NCBI GenBank assembly: GCA_046533775.1
Contig: JAWDOO010000007.1
Coordinates: forward strand, 1 to 28,389
Length of the DNA: 28,389 bases
Direction of reading: 5' to 3'
DNA from: Candidatus Nanopusillus sp.
Lineage (GTDB): Archaea; Nanobdellota; Nanobdellia; Nanobdellales; Nanobdellaceae
Every line of letters starts with the position of its first letter. Position 1 is the first letter of the stretch. Below, one piece after another: positions 14,307 through 22,217 of this stretch. Below the pieces are notes generated by a model. It saw nothing but the letters and a program-made list of their open reading frames with translations, did no database searches and was not told where the DNA came from. The position numbers and the translations under genes are program-made.

Positions 14307-14443
14307 ATAGTAATACTTAAGTAAAAATTTAAAAGGCTTATTTTTACCTTTATAACTAAAAAACAAGCGATCAAATATTATAATTCGATAAATTATATTT
14401 ATTTAGTAAATATTTAGATTTAGAAAACATTATTAATATTACA

Positions 14444-14985
14444 GTAAAAGCAATAATATTTTCAGATGAATATAATAAAAGATTATTTCCATTAACTTTA
14501 AAAAAGCCAAACTATAGATAAAAATAAAAGATAAACTAATTTTACAATGGCAAATAAAATGGTTAATTAAACAAAATATAAAAGAAATAGTTTTAGCTGT
14601 TGGATATTTAAAATCTAAAATATTTGAAACCATAGGTGATGGTTCTCAATTTGGAGTAAAAAATATATTATAGTGTCAAAGAAGAACCTTTAGGAACTGG
14701 AGGAGCTATTAAAAAGGATAAGATATATTGATGAAAATATATTTATATTATTAAATATGGAGATATAATTAATAATCTTTCTATAAGACCCCTAATAGAA
14801 AATATAAATAATGATGTTATTGCATCAATTGCTTTAGTACAAATGAGAAGCTCATATGAGATAATTCAAATTGCTAAAGAAAATTATATAACCGAATTCA
14901 GAGAAAAACATTATTAGATTATTTAATTAATGCTGGAATTTATGTTTTTAATAAAGAAATATACAATTATCTACCGGATAAAGGT
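14444..14985 (+). pseudogene. Decayed, 3'-truncated NDP-sugar pyrophosphorylase (nucleotidyltransferase) gene
   Basis: Recognisable pieces in shifting frames: VKAIIFSDEYNKRLFPLTLKKPN (start codon position reads GTA; the GGxGTRL loop is degenerate), LILQWQIKWLIKQNIKEIVLAVGYLKSKIFETIGDGSQFGVK, YSVKEEPLGTGGAIKK, GDIINNLSIRPLIENINNDVIASIALVQM, LINAGIYVFNKEIYNYLPDKG. There are at least 5 stops or frameshifts. Confidence 0.75.
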
Positions 14986-15419
14986 AAGTTAATCTATTAT
15001 TTTTTAAAGTTTAATTATAAACAATATTTAACCATATATCAAATAACAATTAACATATAATAAGGCTATAAATAGCAATTGTATCTTTAACAATATTGTT
15101 AACACTAAGCCTTTATTGATCAATATATCAAGGAACTGACAATTCTAATATCCTCATAAAGTTACCTTTTACAGTTATAAGAAGTTATATAAGAATATGT
15201 AGGAATAACTTCAGAATTGTACAAAATTTATAAGCAGTGACTTATATAACATTATCTATGAAAAAGAAAAAGTATACTACTATGCTTCTTTTTGATTTAC
15301 AAAGCAATAAAAGAATATTGAGTTCGCTAGTAGAAATAGAAGATAATATCAACAAGCATATGACAGTAGAAAAGAATATATTAATATAAACACTAAATTT
15401 CCTAAAGCTACTGATAAAG

Positions 15420-16309
15420 ATGAATTTAAAAAATAATATTTTATTTGCATTGTGGATGTTAACAAAGCCTTATGGATTTCAAAATTTATTACATTTTTAT
15501 CTAAAAAAGGGAAAAATAAAATTTCCCAACAACTTTTCTATAACGATTAATAAAAATAATTTTATAGATATATTACAACTCTATAGGTTCGCAACTATAT
15601 ATGGAGTAAATATTAACAAACGTTGGAAAGTAAATGAACAGAACTATACTATTACTACTCCTTGTGGACTTAAATTTTCTTTAGAAGGTTTTGATGCACT
15701 AATTTTTGCTGAAACCTTTTGTATGATTCTCACTTCGTTGACTTTGATCTTACTGGAAAGATTGTAATACATGCTGGCGCTTATGTAGGAGAGACCGCAC
15801 TATATTATGCCAATAGAGGAGCTATAGTTTATGCTTTTGAGCCAAATCCAGATTGTTACAGGATAGCAAGCTTAAACCTTAAACTTAATCCTGAACTAGC
15901 TAAAAACATTGTTCTTGAGAATTATGCTATAGGCGAAGATAGTTATGTAGAATTTCCCAATATAAAATGCAATGGAGGTGCTAGCGTTTACAGTAATATT
16001 AAGGATAAAGTTAAAGTTAGGAGCATGAGTATTTCTACTATTTTAAAAGAATTCAAGATAAATAATCCAGATATACTTGATATAGATATTAAAGGTGAGG
16101 AGTTTAAAGTTATAAATGATAGAAGTTTAGAGAAATTTAAAATAATAAGAATAGAATATATAACTGAGATAGAAGGTAAAAAGTTGGGTAGTGTGGATGA
16201 TATAATAAATAAATTAAGAGAATATGGCTTCAATAAAATCAGAATTTATAAGCATAATGAGTTAGAATACGATCTTTCTAAACATGGAACAATATATGCA
16301 GTTAAATAA
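15420..16309 (+). pseudogene. FkbM-family methyltransferase paralog split by a single-base frameshift (ORFs 15420..15767 and 15719..16309)
   Basis: The downstream ORF has the SAM-binding IVIHAGAYVGETALYY and DILDIDIKGEEFKVI (FkbM motif). The upstream ORF parallels the N-domain of the 5551..6177 ORF (GLKFSLEGFDALIFAETF vs GIKFKHLYGTILQIFERE). Adding one T to the T4 run at 15717..15720 fuses them as ...IFAETFLYDSHFVDF.... GC is about 37-40% in two hand-counted lines. Confidence 0.75.
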
Positions 16310-16611: not shown

Positions 16612-16635
16612 GTCGGATAACGTTAGTTATCCGAC
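16612..16635. other. Perfect 10-bp stem / 4-nt loop hairpin (gtcggataac-gtta-gttatccgac) in intergenic DNA
   Basis: Read directly. It is GC-richer than its surroundings and flanked by A-rich DNA. No function is assignable. Confidence 0.5.
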
Positions 16636-16846: not shown

Positions 16847-17683
16847 TTAATTTGTATTGTCCATTATATTAGGTAGATTTTCTAATAAGTAAATTAACAT
16901 ATTAGCTTTTATATTGATCGTATTTTTAGCATTTACATAATCTTTAAGTGCTTGATTAACTATTTCAGTTATTTTTATACCATCCTCTTCAGAAAAATAT
17001 TTGAAATTTTCTATTGCATCTTTTATATTTATTTTTGGTGATAATTTATATTTATTTAATATATTTTCATAAGCATATATAATATCATTTGCAAAACAAT
17101 ATCCTAGAGAATAGGGTAAATAGGGTAATGGATTTTTTTCTTGTATAAATTCTTCGCATTTTTGTGTATTTTGTTCCATAATTTTATACACTTCAGGATA
17201 TTTATACAATTCATTTTTATAGAAATATACTAAAAATTCAACAAAAGAAGCTTTCCATTCATCATTAATACCTATTGAACGAAATATAACATGTCCAATT
17301 TCATGAATTAATATTGATTCGGCATCAGCTTTTGCGATAATTTTTTCTATGTCATCATCATTTTTATATACTGGCCATAATATCCCATTACGTGGTATAG
17401 TAAATAGATTACCAATATAACTTTCATTCAGATTAATCGAAACTCTATCTACAAAATTTTTTATCGAGTTTTTTATAATATAAATTGTTCCTGAATCATA
17501 CATTCCGCCAGTATTTTCATTTACTTTATCTTTTCCATATTTTTGTATTAATTCTTCTGGTGATTCTAATATTTTTAATTTTAGACCATCTTTAACTTTT
17601 ATACCATTATTATTGAAATATTCTATAGCTTCTTCAAAACTCTTTTTTATAATGTCGTCTAAATTATATCTGTTTTCTGACAT
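16847..17683 (-). CDS. Uncharacterised HExxH (zinc-metallopeptidase-like) protein, paralog 2
   Basis: HEIGH at 17291..17305. Collinear conserved blocks with the upstream paralog are listed in the findings. ATG at 17681..17683 (MSENRYNLDD) aligns with the paralog's N-terminus; the ORF track extends to 17743. Confidence 0.6.
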   Translation of the reverse strand: MSENRYNLDDIIKKSFEEAIEYFNNNGIKVKDGLKLKILESPEELIQKYGKDKVNENTGGMYDSGTIYIIKNSIKNFVDRVSINLNESYIGNLFTIPRNGILWPVYKNDDDIEKIIAKADAESILIHEIGHVIFRSIGINDEWKASFVEFLVYFYKNELYKYPEVYKIMEQNTQKCEEFIQEKNPLPYLPYSLGYCFANDIIYAYENILNKYKLSPKINIKDAIENFKYFSEEDGIKITEIVNQALKDYVNAKNTINIKANMLIYLLENLPNIMDNTN

Positions 17684-17767
17684 TACCATATAATAGTAGC
17701 AAAGGCTTATAATTTTTATTATTTCAAAATTTAGTACATTCAAATATATATTTCATAATTTTTTAAG

Positions 17768-18700
17768 CTAATAAATTATAATTTTAGTTATAGCATCTAA
17801 TTTAGATAAATTTTTAACTTCTTCTATAACATCTTTTATATTTAAATATGATGTTTTTTTATTTTTATCTATAATAATATTTGCATAGCATTCACCTAAA
17901 CCATAAGGATCAGTTATTAAGTTCTCAATATATTTTTTACATTCTATTATATTTTCTTTTATGATTTCATACGTTTCCGAATATTTTAGTAAATTGTACA
18001 TATCAATGTATGTTATATATTGCAAAGCAGAAACTGATAATTCCCAATCTGCTAAGTCCTCTCTATCAACAATAAAATGGTCTATTTCATGAATTATCTT
18101 ATTAGCAGCAAAAACTTTTGCTACATCTTTTTTTATATTTTTTCTCTTTGTATATAAGGGAGCAGATACAATACTAAATAGTGGCCATCCCAATCTAATA
18201 ATAGATGGTCCATTTATATTTACAGGACCCAATTCATTTAATATTTCATCTATACCTTTTTCTAATTGGTCTTTTATAATGTAAATTTCTTTTATTTCTG
18301 GTATACTCATCCCATAAATTTTTTCATTTTCAATAGGATATATAACATATTTAAGTATCTTCTTATTTAATTCCTTTATATCATCTGTATTATATATTTG
18401 CTTAAATAAATATATCTCACCTATATAAAATTCTCTAAGATTTTCTTTATTTATTATATATATATTATCATAATTGGATATTTGCTCCAATAAATTTTTA
18501 TCAATTGTATTAAGCTCTTGCTTTAATTTATTTATATCATATGTATTTATCATATAAGATAATTTCGATAATAAATCTGGAGATTCCAATACCCTCAGTC
18601 TTACACCTTTAATTTCTATACCAGCTTTTTTAAGATACCCTTTAAATTCTTTATAAAATTCTCTCATAATATAATCCAAACCATATTTATCTGCTGTCAT
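17768..18700 (-). CDS. Uncharacterised HExxH (zinc-metallopeptidase-like) protein, paralog 1
   Basis: 310-aa ORF with an ATG start and HEIDH at 18077..18091. Shares GVRLRVLESPDLL, IYIIK, GWP, LGECYAN and NIKDVIEE blocks with 16847..17683. Confidence 0.6.
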   Translation of the reverse strand: MTADKYGLDYIMREFYKEFKGYLKKAGIEIKGVRLRVLESPDLLSKLSYMINTYDINKLKQELNTIDKNLLEQISNYDNIYIINKENLREFYIGEIYLFKQIYNTDDIKELNKKILKYVIYPIENEKIYGMSIPEIKEIYIIKDQLEKGIDEILNELGPVNINGPSIIRLGWPLFSIVSAPLYTKRKNIKKDVAKVFAANKIIHEIDHFIVDREDLADWELSVSALQYITYIDMYNLLKYSETYEIIKENIIECKKYIENLITDPYGLGECYANIIIDKNKKTSYLNIKDVIEEVKNLSKLDAITKIIIY

Positions 18701-18769
18701 TAATACATAGTAATAAAAAATTTTATGATTATTATTTTTTAAAATCCTTTTTTATCAAATTTAATAAAT

Positions 18770-19974
18770 TTATATAACAGCTAAAAATAATGGTAAATTA
18801 TTTTCATCTAAAATTATTATATCTTTTGGATAATTTTTATGAGCTCTTTTAGATTTAATTTCTATTTTTAAATCATTTGCAATAACATCTATCTCATAAC
18901 TATTTCTATAATAATATACTTCTCTAAATCTTCTTTTTAAATGTGATTGCACAATCCATTCGTATAATGCACTTTCTAGAAATTCTACATTAGTCCATAA
19001 ACTTAAAGATTTTGCTAAATAAGGATCTAATATAAAAAATTTTCTCTCTTTTCTCCAAATTATCTGTTTTTCTTTAAATAGAGCATAATCTAATATGAAT
19101 AATCTTCTAAAAATTTCAATATAATCTTCAACAGTCTTATAAGAGACTCCAACTTCTTTTCCTATTGATAAAAAAGATAAAGGAGATGGGGCTTTAGATA
19201 AAATTGTAGATATAATTGCTTTAGATAATCCAATATTTCTTTCTGATCTTAAAATTTCATTTTCTATAGAATTTATAATTTGAAGACTTGCATCTCTATA
19301 ACTATTTATTGATAATGGATATCCACCAGTTTCGATATAATTTTCAAATTCTTTAAATATTTTTGGTTCTAATCCAGATAAATTATTCATACCTTCTAAA
19401 ATATTTTCATATCTATTTATTTTTATTCCTTTTATATTTAAATATTCTCTAAAACTTAATGGATAAACATATACATCCTTTCCATTCCCCCTTCTACCTG
19501 GAAACAATTCTACTTCTCCCTTTAATTTTATAGAGGAGGAACCTGTAATAGTTATAACATCATTTTTAAATTTTCCTATATCTATATATAATTTAATTGT
19601 TCTCCACCAATCATTTACATAAGTAATTTCATCTAAGAATATATATGATGTTTTTATATTTCTTTTTTCTTTTATTTTTAAATAATAATCAATTACTCTT
19701 CTTAACTCTTCAAAATTTGTTAAATTTGAACAATCATAATAAAATATAGACCAAGAATCTTTGTTTTCCAATAATTTATTTATTAACAATTTTATTCCAG
19801 TTGTTTTACCAACCTGCCTAGGTCCTATAATAAAATTTAGTGAAAAAGGTTCTAAAGAAATATCTTTTAACCATCAGGTACCCATCTTATTTTCATATTT
19901 TCCCATCTTTCTATTACTATATCTTTTTGATTAATATACCATGGGTTAAAGTAATATAATAGTTCATCATTCAT
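18770..19974 (-). pseudogene. COG1373-type AAA+ ATPase (AAA_14 + DUF4143-like C-terminus) with a frameshift near the 5' end
   Basis: Walker A GPRQVGKTT (19799..19825) lies upstream of the listed ORF (18770..19789, TTG start) in the same frame. That frame is closed by TGA just upstream of WLKDISLEPF. A different frame carries ATG 19972..19974 with MNDELLYYFNPWYINQKDIVIERWENMKIRWVPDG*. The C-terminus YEIDVIANDLKIEIKSK fits a D...ExK nuclease-like core. Confidence 0.7.
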
Positions 19975-20219
19975 ATTAGAACTAATACTTCTAATATATT
20001 TATAAATCATTAGAAGTTATACTTCTAATATTAAGGACTTATATAAAGTTTTATCTAACCTTCACTACTTAATTTTTATCAATAAGTTGACAAAACTAAA
20101 ATACAAAATTATTATTAATAAAAAATTATTAGAAGTGTAAATTCAACACAAAAGGTTATTAGTAGTATATTAATGTTTATTGCTTTATTATTATTAATTA
20201 TATAAGATCTTAATAATTT

Positions 20220-21236
20220 TTAGTTGGAATTAGAATTATTAACCATATAGTTTATTAAATTATTAACATATGGATTATTCCATAATCCAAAAGGATCTCC
20301 ATATCCATTCCAATTATATATTCCAATTATATTTATACCCATTTCATGTAACTGATTAATTATATCTTCATAATATTTTATTGTAGCCCGATATCCTTGT
20401 TCAGAAGTACCATTCCAATATCCAAGACTCCCAGAATTTATATAACCTTCCAAATCTCCATTTCTAAATCCCAATTCGCCTATGAAAAATTTAATATTAT
20501 TATTATCTGCAAATTGTTTATATTGCATAATAATACTTTTCATATATTCATTCATTGAAATATTTCCATTATTATAAATATAAGTTCCATATAATTTTAA
20601 ACCAACCATATTCAATTTTATTCCATAATTATTTAACAAATAATTATATAATTCTACTATTCTTTTAGAATTTCTCATATCTACATAATAAAATAAATTT
20701 AAGTTTGGTAAATACTTTTTCATTAAAGAATAATAATATGCTAACTTTTCTATTGGGACTTTATCAATTCCACTAAATCCAATAATAATATTTTCTCCGC
20801 TATTAGTAATATTTGATAAATATTTTAAAAATTCTTTAATATTTTGATCATATTGCGATAAATTTGGAATATTATCTCTATCAATTGTGACAAACAAATT
20901 TATATAAATTGGTTTTTTATTTTTATTATTTTCATATAAATATAATATTTGATCTAAAGAATGTTTATAATTGTCATTAAAAGTTACTATAACACCTTCT
21001 GTAATAGGAAAATTGCTTTGAAAATATGGATTCAATAATTTATAAGTTTCATTGCCAGGTTCCCATGGAACATCCCAAAATATATATTGTAAATTATTCA
21101 AATTATTTGAGAAATTTTTATATAGACTATTATTTATTCCATATTTAAAAAATTTAAAAATTAATGTTCCTAAAACAGCAGCTCTAACTAATTCAGTCAA
21201 ACCCAATAAAAATTCTCTTTTACTTTCATCTACCAT
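20220..21236 (-). CDS. Putative secreted or membrane-anchored TIM-barrel glycoside-hydrolase-like protein (family not assigned)
   Basis: The N-terminus SKREFLLGLTELVRAAVLGTLIF resembles a Tat-type signal or anchor. There is an alternating beta-strand-like pattern, and FFIGELGF resembles the clan GH-A nucleophile motif. No clear NEP acid/base motif was found. Confidence 0.35.
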   Translation of the reverse strand: MVDESKREFLLGLTELVRAAVLGTLIFKFFKYGINNSLYKNFSNNLNNLQYIFWDVPWEPGNETYKLLNPYFQSNFPITEGVIVTFNDNYKHSLDQILYLYENNKNKKPIYINLFVTIDRDNIPNLSQYDQNIKEFLKYLSNITNSGENIIIGFSGIDKVPIEKLAYYYSLMKKYLPNLNLFYYVDMRNSKRIVELYNYLLNNYGIKLNMVGLKLYGTYIYNNGNISMNEYMKSIIMQYKQFADNNNIKFFIGELGFRNGDLEGYINSGSLGYWNGTSEQGYRATIKYYEDIINQLHEMGINIIGIYNWNGYGDPFGLWNNPYVNNLINYMVNNSNSN

Positions 21237-21424
21237 TATTTAATATAAAAATTACAAGTTTGAAAAAGTAGATAATCTTGTACCTGCATTAATACTAGTG
21301 ATATTTTAGTAACTTCTGATGATTTCTCTAACTTTAAATAATAAGCTAAATTAAAGAAGCTTCCAATACACCAAATACCTGCTGCCAATAAACATTTTTG
21401 AAACTCTCTTCTAGTAAGCGCCAT
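21236..21424 (-). CDS. Small ORF with a twin-arginine-like N-terminus, overlapping the downstream gene start (TAATG)
   Basis: MALTRREFQKCLLAAGIWCIGSFF (RR motif plus a hydrophobic span). Its stop overlaps the ATG of 20220..21236 by 1 nt. The C-terminal half looks like low-information sequence, so it may be a remnant N-terminus. Confidence 0.3.
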   Translation of the reverse strand: MALTRREFQKCLLAAGIWCIGSFFNLAYYLKLEKSSEVTKISLVLMQVQDYLLFQTCNFYIK

Positions 21425-21572: not shown

Positions 21573-22217
21573 TCAAATGTTTTCTAATATTTTTTTAATT
21601 TCCAATAATTTATTTTGTAGTAACTTATATCTATTAATTATTTCCTCCTTTTCTCTACTAATTTTATCTAAGTCAGATTTTATTCTACCAATTTCTATTT
21701 GTAAACTTTTTATTGTTTCTTCTTTATTATTTATGATATTTTTTAGTTCATCTCTTTCCATTTTTAATTTTTCAATTTCTTCTTTAAGATTTTTTACCTG
21801 ATTTTTTAGATCATCTAATTCTTTATTAGAACTATTAAACGATAAAATTAAATTTAATTGTCCCGATTTTATCTTTTCATACGTTTCTATTATAAGAGAA
21901 CCTGCCTTCGTTTTTCCACTAATATGATTTCTTATAGTTTCTTCTGATCTACCCAATTCATCTGCAATTAAACTTATTGGCATTCCTGCTTTATATCTTG
22001 CATAAGCTGCTGCTGCAATTGCTAAACTATCAATCCATGTAGATCTTTCATTTGGATCTTTTATTAATTCCAATATTTCTGGTCTATATAAAGTACCTAT
22101 AATTAGAAATGTTTCTAATTTTTTTATATCATTCTTTCCCAATGGATTTAATGGTATGCTTTTAAAATCTATATCTATTTTTTCAGATTGTGATTGTGAA
22201 GATATAGTATCTACCAT
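21573..22217 (-). CDS. HTH DNA-binding protein (COG1318-like) with a long C-terminal coiled coil
   Basis: The MPISLIADELGRSEETIRNHISGKTKAG helix-turn-helix block is followed by about 90 aa of heptad-like K/E/L/I sequence (LDDLKNQVKNLKEEIEKLKMERDELKNII...). Confidence 0.5.
   Translation of the reverse strand: MVDTISSQSQSEKIDIDFKSIPLNPLGKNDIKKLETFLIIGTLYRPEILELIKDPNERSTWIDSLAIAAAAYARYKAGMPISLIADELGRSEETIRNHISGKTKAGSLIIETYEKIKSGQLNLILSFNSSNKELDDLKNQVKNLKEEIEKLKMERDELKNIINNKEETIKSLQIEIGRIKSDLDKISREKEEIINRYKLLQNKLLEIKKILENI

Follow-up and report, generated by a model that had tools for sequence, protein, structure and literature searches.

A PDC-S01-type ATPase gene beside tandem HExxH paralogues in Nanopusillus: probably two adjacent independent units

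The window analysed here is the whole of contig JAWDOO010000007.1, 28,389 bp from a metagenome-assembled genome (MAG) labelled Candidatus Nanopusillus sp. It carries three consecutive genes on the minus strand: an ATPase gene (19974..18770), HExxH-A (18700..17768) and HExxH-B (ending at 16847). We consider it probable that the locus consists of two independent units that lie next to each other, a cassette encoding an ATPase of the PDC-S01 type and a tandem pair of HExxH paralogues. The ATPase is a member of an already catalogued family and not a new one, and the HExxH proteins form an undescribed family that has a narrow distribution and is of a general kind already known. A first-pass annotation of the same DNA had proposed a novel three-gene module in which a nucleoside triphosphatase (NTPase)/nuclease sensor is paired with protease-like effectors. 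A three-gene defence module is not established; adjacency of independent units is likelier than a functional module, and true functional coupling of the ATPase with the HExxH genes is, in our estimate, improbable. The serial arrangement given in that annotation stands, with gaps of 69 nucleotides (nt) between the ATPase and A and of 24–84 nt between A and B, depending on which start codon of B is chosen (17743, TTG; 17689; 17683, ATG). The start at 17683 is favoured because the homologues begin MSE....

The main frame of the ATPase gene (18770..19873, minus strand) encodes Walker A (GPRQVGKTT) and Walker B (LDE) motifs, a helix-turn-helix (HTH)-like segment and a C-terminal PD-(D/E)xK core. 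Pfam matches to AAA_14 (1.1e-25) and DUF4143 (5.9e-9) bear out the COG1373 layout first assigned to it. In an alignment of 23 ATPase homologues reaching down to 47% identity, GxRxxGKTT and LDE are invariant, and so are E339, E361-x-D363 and E372-x-K374; the EID...EIK string, earlier called compatible with a nuclease-like core, is thus real, and the upstream glutamate E339 is conserved along with it. DUF4143/COG1373 is listed among the PD-(D/E)XK families with function unknown (PMC3424549). The intact orthologue of N. stetteri, 93% identical to the copy in the window, matches the PADLOC model PDC-S01 at 9.7e-38 together with six further PDC-S01 models. A 2026 survey classes PDC-S01 among the putative single-gene defence candidates and describes it as a fusion of an ATPase with a PD-(D/E)xK domain that is very common, enriched in archaea and repeatedly transferred between lineages; most PDCs still await validation (PMC12988326). 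The likeness of the ATPase to PDC-S01/COG1373 therefore comprises two identical Pfam domains, the hidden Markov model match, both Walker motifs and the invariant PD-(D/E)xK core. The differences are that the window copy is frameshifted and that HExxH genes lie downstream in this clade only. As far as its domains allow a mechanism to be proposed, the ATPase would bind nucleic acid, with ATP controlling the PD-(D/E)xK domain, which is the activity proposed for PDC-S01 generally; one homologue (P0262) has a Pfam HTH_11 call.

Within the Nanopusillus/Nanobsidianus clade the ATPase orthologues are 92–95% identical. The next homologues stand at 64% and then at 47–60% identity, in Thermoprotei, Methanomethylicia, Bathyarchaeia, Korarchaeota and Nitrososphaeria. 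On the strength of these identity levels to homologues outside the clade, the lineage probably acquired the ATPase horizontally from a TACK-type archaeon. Three homologues that we looked up directly are solitary, in housekeeping contexts and with unrelated neighbours (PfkB kinase, GH31, AIR carboxylase).

The copy in the window is interrupted. The first-pass annotation described the gene with the motifs quoted above, and these are present, but it overlooked a 1-nt deletion by which the first 35 codons are cut off from the rest. Alignment with 96%-identical N. stetteri DNA places the deletion at 19873..19876 (CCTGAATGG>CCTGATGG, minus strand), where one missing A at about 19874 creates an in-frame TGA. 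The 5' fragment (19867..19974, minus strand) consists of 35 codons (MNDELLYYFNPWY...RWVPDG) and a stop, and corresponds collinearly to the N-terminus of the 401-amino-acid (aa) orthologue, which is intact. It is out of frame with the remainder of the gene (19873..18770), which includes the Walker A part. The NCBI annotation holds only a 339-aa product that starts after the P-loop (P0183). An alternative genetic code as the explanation of the in-frame TGA is ruled out by the 1-nt deletion in the orthologue alignment. The frameshift may be a recent inactivation, or an error of the MAG consensus or assembly. Ratios of nonsynonymous to synonymous substitution rates (dN/dS), calculated for each gene by the Nei-Gojobori method from five or six comparisons of orthologues, are 0.12–0.14 for the ATPase, and with a value of 0.13 any inactivation must be recent.

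The promoter region of the ATPase sets this gene apart as a unit. The 'repeated palindromes upstream' of the earlier description correspond to a pair of 19-bp sites with the pattern TTAGAA-N7-TTCTAA on the minus strand, a distal one (TTAGAAGTATAACTTCTAA, 20028..20010) and a proximal one (TTAGAAGTATTAGTTCTAA, 19994..19976) that ends 1 nt before the ATG. Where 0.14 matches were expected, a scan for this pattern returned four, since each of the two sites is counted on either strand. Between the two operator-like sites, about 25–32 nt upstream of the ATG, lies the TATA-like box TTTATAAA (19999..20006, minus strand), which would serve as the promoter element. Across the 80 metagenomic ATPase loci that we surveyed (L024–L103), both palindromes were found at -54 and -20 in 17/17 Nanopusillaceae clade loci with enough upstream DNA. 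Among distant ATPase loci, TTAGAA-N7-TTCTAA with at most two mismatches was present in 33/53, and a perfect 6+6 palindrome fell within -100..+5 in 41/52, the density of such palindromes being 10.4 per kb upstream versus 1.2 per kb elsewhere. The order palindrome, TATA, palindrome, ATG is also seen at homologues of 59–64% identity (L018 4018-4070, L020 3946-4000, L021 3950-4000). Among the matching loci, a clade of 44–47% identity uses the symmetric variant TGAGAA/TTCTCA, and other ATPase clades have TTGATA/TATCAA, TTGGGA/TCCCAA, TTGAAA/TTTCAA or TGTCAG/CTGACA at the same positions. Both half-sites thus co-vary symmetrically with the protein clade, as expected for a dimeric, sequence-specific regulator that travels with the gene. 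This pattern suggests that the ATPase promoter is repressed by a dimeric binder, most simply the HTH-like segment of the ATPase itself (GVSYKTVEDYIEIF). With a conserved palindrome-flanked promoter of its own, the ATPase gene has the appearance of a self-contained cassette, and would be an autonomous, probably self-repressed member of PDC-S01. No palindrome-flanked promoter of this kind was met with in the literature that was consulted.

Within the clade, the neighbourhood of the ATPase is constant. In 24/24 metagenomic ATPase loci of the clade type, the open reading frame (ORF) that directly follows the ATPase on its strand belongs to the HExxH family, and the same adjacency is seen in 5 other loci (N. 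stetteri and other MAGs) as well as in the window. This constancy speaks for a lineage-specific two- or three-gene system, in which an acquired PDC-S01 sensor would act with a zincin-like protease as effector or regulator, B being obligatory and A an optional, diversifying adaptor. In keeping with such a system, the adjacency of ATPase and B-like gene survives rearrangement of the flanks and the gain or loss of A, which is present in 11/24 and absent from 13/24 of the metagenomic loci; a dN/dS near 1 in A could mean diversifying selection; and a second HExxH locus adjoins VapBC and MNT/HEPN-like genes, so that conflict genes are found around members of the family. We nevertheless hold this explanation to be quite unlikely. 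All clade loci represent the same orthologous locus, sampled from close relatives (dS 0.17–0.34, about 0.2–0.3), and are not independent observations, and a pairing confined to one orthologous locus in one clade is indistinguishable from inherited adjacency. No HExxH-family ORF was found at any of 56 loci with ATPases of 41–65% identity, so the pairing does not recur in phylogenetically independent genomes, where the three homologues looked up directly were solitary as well. PDC-S01 is itself a single-gene candidate, and five of the about seven HExxH paralogues per genome sit away from any ATPase. The neighbourhood analysis thus upholds the proposed association within the clade and contradicts it outside. 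Of the module reading, the defence-linked ATPase and the constant clade adjacency remain; the distant loci, together with the independent decay and the unequal dN/dS described below, tell against it.

The three genes are lost and broken differently in different strains, from which it follows that they decay independently. In Nanopusillus sp. RSNS15, a clean deletion of ~2.05 kb has removed the ATPase and most of A (L012 2759-2850), joining codon ~11 of the ATPase to the last ~40 codons of A; the palindromic promoter and a full-length B with HEIGH are kept. A is defective or gone in most strains: besides its absences noted above, it is split in L005/L006 (with loss of HExxH), L011, L033 and L042, and is without HExxH in L025 and L034. 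B is intact in all loci examined except L039, and has stayed so despite the loss of the ATPase in RSNS15 and its frameshift in the window. The genes are also under very different selective regimes, with dN/dS of 0.64–0.97 for HExxH-A and 0.39–0.54 for HExxH-B, to be set against the low values of the ATPase; for the neighbouring genes we obtained 0.06 (a KaiC-associated regulator gene) and 0.36–0.41 (a 338-aa gene).

The upstream regions point in the same direction. Each of the three genes has a TATA-like box 24–32 nt before its ATG, and for this reason the three are probably transcribed separately, possibly as leaderless units. For A the element lies in the intergenic region 18701..18769 (minus strand), which is homologous to the region upstream of B and would act as a promoter. 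For B it is AAATTATAA, about 24–31 nt before the ATG at 17683, within 17684..17767 (minus strand). The region upstream of B is retained in RSNS15, and strains that lack A have it attached directly to the 3' end of the ATPase gene. The homology of the two upstream regions fits either a tandem duplication of gene and promoter or a loss of A by recombination between the repeats. The conserved, operator-flanked promoter of the ATPase on the one hand, and the separate TATA-like elements of the HExxH genes on the other, tell against a single two- or three-gene system. Under our preferred reading of two independent units, the ATPase cassette would have landed, or would have been kept, upstream of a resident HExxH paralogue. 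A sigma-70 promoter scan of the locus gave nothing above shuffled sequences, that model being irrelevant to archaea, and Rfam and tRNA scans found no RNA gene within the three-gene locus.

A bolder version of the coupled reading is that the clade has wired an acquired PDC-S01 ATPase-nuclease to its own expanded zincin-like family, making a new two-component conflict system with a protease effector or regulator. If that were true, the wider HExxH family would mediate symbiont-host or symbiont-virus conflict. The arrangement recalls NTPase-plus-protease conflict systems of the STAND/Avs type in that a P-loop NTPase gene adjoins protease-like genes. It differs from them in that the genes are separate and have separate promoter-like elements, and in that the pairing is confined to one clade; no PADLOC model matches the HExxH proteins. 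We regard this proposal as a long shot.

The HExxH genes belong to a family that is restricted to one group of archaea. HExxH-B (16847..17683, minus strand) encodes 278 aa from the ATG at 17683, with HEIGH at 17305..17291, and is 100% identical to RXQ68_02660. HExxH-A (17768..18700, minus strand) encodes 310 aa, with HEIDH at 18091..18077 and a soluble insertion of ~80 aa. The two are paralogous, with 33% identity over 190 residues (E=4e-19) and N-termini that also match. HExxH-B has 243 homologues at E<=0.01, and all named sources among them are Nanopusillus, Nanobsidianus or unclassified 'Nanoarchaeota archaeon' MAGs. An exhaustive profile search of 1.84 billion representative proteins returned only 34 clusters of the family at 50% identity, and the GTDB species representatives contain only 6 loci of it, all in N. 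stetteri or Nanopusillus sp. A literature search on Nanopusillus and metalloproteases found nothing, and the single-cell paper of Jarett 2018 does not mention the HExxH proteins.

The HEIDH and HEIGH motifs picked out at first reading are present as described, and they are not chance pentapeptides, as conservation of HExxH (H129, E130 and H133 in B) in the family is at least 90%. The same degree of conservation applies to P106, Y108 and S148; six residues, Y155, N174, C178, G196, C198 and I226, do not vary at all within the family. E151, the candidate third ligand of B, lies 18 residues past H133 and is at least 90% conserved within the B/C set. Both HExxH and E151 have been lost in P0130 and P0131 (E151 being replaced by Gly), a joint loss that fits a shared metal site; P0137 has kept HExxH and has Gly at the E151 position. 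A is a divergent paralogue in which Gln replaces the candidate third-ligand Glu. With this substitution and a dN/dS near 1, A is most likely a relaxed or decaying copy.

Structure prediction gives HExxH-B a confidently modelled fold. The AlphaFold2 model of the full-length protein reaches a predicted local distance difference test score (pLDDT) of 88.1 and a predicted template modelling score (pTM) of 0.86; that of the core reaches 88.9 and 0.89. An N-terminal helix is followed by a five-stranded sheet, a long helix that bears HExxH (114-137) and a helix with E151 and Y155 (144-158); then come two helices with N174/C178 and Y193/G196/C198, and finally a C-terminal helix of 44 residues. A sheet, an HExxH helix and a Glu-bearing helix in this order are the zincin/gluzincin arrangement, and the placement on an α-helix of a motif conserved in the family is what a zincin shows. 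The models suggest that the family is zincin-like, probably gluzincin-like, and the searches below place it in no described peptidase family. B is most likely a cytoplasmic zinc metallopeptidase of the gluzincin type, with H129, H133 and E151 as its putative Zn ligands and E130 as the putative general base.

Searches of profiles and structures agree with the initial impression that the HExxH proteins match no peptidase family that can be named: Pfam, NCBIfam, PADLOC and the PDB yielded no match above threshold. In Pfam, the best match of B is M64 (PF09471) at E=0.0021, with 17.7 bits against a cut-off of 26 bits, over residues 123-194. NCBIfam gave nothing above cut-off, and sequence-profile searches of the PDB gave only unrelated weak matches and no peptidase. 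Foldseek searches with the full-length and the core-only models returned nothing at E<=1e-3 in PDB or BFVD (best E-values 0.15 and 0.34 in PDB and 0.067 in BFVD). The only recurrent neighbour was the M1 aminopeptidase ERAP1, at a probability of 0.4-0.75 and a template modelling (TM) score of about 0.36-0.42, and matches to gyrase and a nuclear receptor were discounted at a TM of ~0.1-0.2.

Known families were considered for the window proteins and for sets of 57 and 24 members, with scattered and inconsistent sub-threshold matches in Pfam and NCBIfam as the only outcome. M64, SprT-like and M48 were each rejected as the identity of the family on one sub-threshold match apiece. DUF6364 matched the C-terminal helix of 17 members below threshold (best E=0.0026), and mTERF also gave sub-threshold matches. 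A PADLOC match of A to Cmr4 (E=0.0032) falls in the low-complexity insertion and is spurious.

Compared with the gluzincins (M1 ERAP1, thermolysin), the family shares HExxH on a long helix after a β-sheet, and has on the next helix a Glu, conserved in the B/C set, as a candidate counterpart of the third zinc ligand. It differs in its much smaller catalytic domain of ~230 aa, in the want of any significant E-value, and in the invariant Cys pair C178/C198, Y155 and N174, which are particular to the HExxH family. M1 aminopeptidases have the motif HExxH-x18-E together with the exopeptidase motif GxMEN. The HExxH family, by contrast, has the spacing HExxH-x17-E and no GxMEN in the alignment, in which a GxY(D/E) is conserved ~65 residues before HExxH. 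The M64 (IgA peptidase) match of B does span the HExxH helix and the two helices that follow; it is below cut-off, however, and M64 is matched by 1/57 members of the family.

The proteins might instead not be proteases at all, being fast-evolving structural or binding proteins, pseudoenzymes or another kind of metal-dependent hydrolase, with a role in symbiont-host relations or at the membrane. The residues invariant throughout the family are Y155, N174, C178, G196 and C198 and not HExxH, which has been replaced or lost in P0147 (HEVTD), in a 265-aa protein of L015, in P0130 and P0131, and in A of L025 and L034. The elevated dN/dS of the HExxH genes and a hydrophobic, hairpin-like insertion in paralogues of one locus type are likewise in keeping with such a role. 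Protease families, however, often mix active and inactive paralogues; the motif remains at least 90% conserved overall and, where lost in P0130/P0131, is lost jointly with E151; and the predicted topology fits a zincin, with a gluzincin as the one repeated fold neighbour and M64 as the weak Pfam match. On this evidence a non-protease family seems unlikely to us.

Several points weigh against our account of two independent units, one of them a family of zincin-like peptidases. Each clade ATPase locus has a same-strand HExxH gene within about 100 nt, in spite of rearranged flanks and the gain and loss of A, and selection for the linkage of ATPase and HExxH gene is possible. The horizontal transfer of the ATPase is inferred from levels of identity and not from a tree. 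TATA-like strings are common in DNA of 22% G+C, which leaves separate transcription at the level of a suggestion. The metal ligands of B were assigned from alignment and secondary structure instead of coordinates. Since several paralogues are without HExxH, peptidase activity of the family is putative, and no profile or structure match of the HExxH proteins to a peptidase family reaches significance, which also favours the non-protease alternative.

The wider distribution of the family shows how little of it is tied to the ATPase: there are about 7 HExxH paralogues at 3 loci per genome, and the ATPase is found at one of these only. In loci of type 1, that of the window, the ATPase is followed by A, where present, and by B. 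Type 2 loci have no ATPase. A VapBC-like pair of a 74-aa gene and a PIN gene comes first in them, followed by gene C, which is B-like, and gene D, which is divergent; these loci adjoin CTP synthase, with serpin or MNT/HEPN-like genes nearby. In N. stetteri Nst1_C2 (L014 6440-7871), a minimal-nucleotidyltransferase-like gene and the small ORF that partners it precede the type 2 locus, as does the VapBC-like pair of 74-aa and PIN genes, and the B-like C gene is split into ORFs of 78 aa and 125 aa. In some nanoarchaeal contigs a serpin gene of 457 aa stands beside the type 2 locus (L007 3722-5095, L008 164-1537), where a protease inhibitor thus adjoins putative protease genes. Type 3 loci (L015 5110-8533, L023 2213-5774) contain three paralogues between the genes for PCMT and Asp-tRNA synthetase, with marC in between and no ATPase, and two of the three paralogues are without HExxH. 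Most type 3 paralogues have the hydrophobic hairpin-like insertion at the place where A has its soluble 80-aa insertion, the Kyte-Doolittle average over 19 residues reaching at least 1.6 in most of them versus about 1.0 in A and B. The MAG of the window has a type 3 paralogue on another contig (RXQ68_03090). About 7 paralogues would make up ~1% of the genes in a Nanopusillus genome, which we take to have ~0.6 Mb and 600-650 genes.

The first-pass annotation placed the locus in 'clearly accessory DNA'. Comparison with close relatives agrees to the extent that the flanks, with sugar-nucleotide and glycosyltransferase genes, vary between strains and that some of these genes are broken; the description is overstated in that the contig (~22% G+C) otherwise holds mostly housekeeping and sugar-nucleotide genes. 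These include pyruvate kinase, phosphoglucomutase, an RmlA-D-like set, glycosyltransferases, pyruvate:ferredoxin oxidoreductase, a MiaB-like radical-SAM enzyme and two tRNAs, a content that identifies the contig as part of the chromosome of a symbiont with a reduced genome. The tRNA-Thr(TGT) at 2189-2284 was called at 96 nt, above the standard length of a tRNA, which suggests an intron.

Downstream of the locus, at 14407-16309, genes show signs of decay: an FkbM-family methyltransferase is apparently split into overlapping ORFs (15420-15767 and 15719-16309), and 14407-14985, which in relatives corresponds at 87-90% identity to a portion of an NTP-transferase gene, is without a long ORF in the window. 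A G+C-rich hairpin with a 10-bp stem followed by a T-run (16612..16635, minus strand) lies 212 nt downstream of B in a long non-coding stretch; it is 92% conserved in L006 and is possibly a terminator or a small structured element. Upstream of the locus (20220-21424 region), the 338-aa gene has a hydrophobic N-terminus after SKREFLLG. It is abutted by a 62-aa ORF (21236-21424) that begins MALTRREFQK, a twin-arginine-like signal motif, and the two together may reflect a duplicated or frameshifted signal peptide. Beyond them, a 214-aa protein (21573-22217) has a long coiled coil in addition to a regulatory HTH domain of the 'near_KaiC' type (TIGR03879, 1.7e-18), and the dN/dS of 0.06 noted above, measured against L010, places it under very strong purifying selection.

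Two leads follow from the locus, the conserved, co-varying operator architecture of PDC-S01-type genes and an orphan zincin-like family that has expanded seven-fold within the minimal genome of a symbiont. PDC-S01 is among the commonest unvalidated defence candidates, and the promoter of palindrome, TATA and palindrome that is common to genes of this type in several archaeal phyla provides a testable hypothesis of autorepression. The HExxH family is undescribed, can be folded with confidence, and has been found in a single clade of obligately symbiotic archaea and nowhere else; in that clade copies with and without the motif, and copies with soluble and with hydrophobic insertions, occur together and some evolve fast. 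Lineage-specific expansions of this kind in reduced symbiont genomes are candidates for host-interaction functions.

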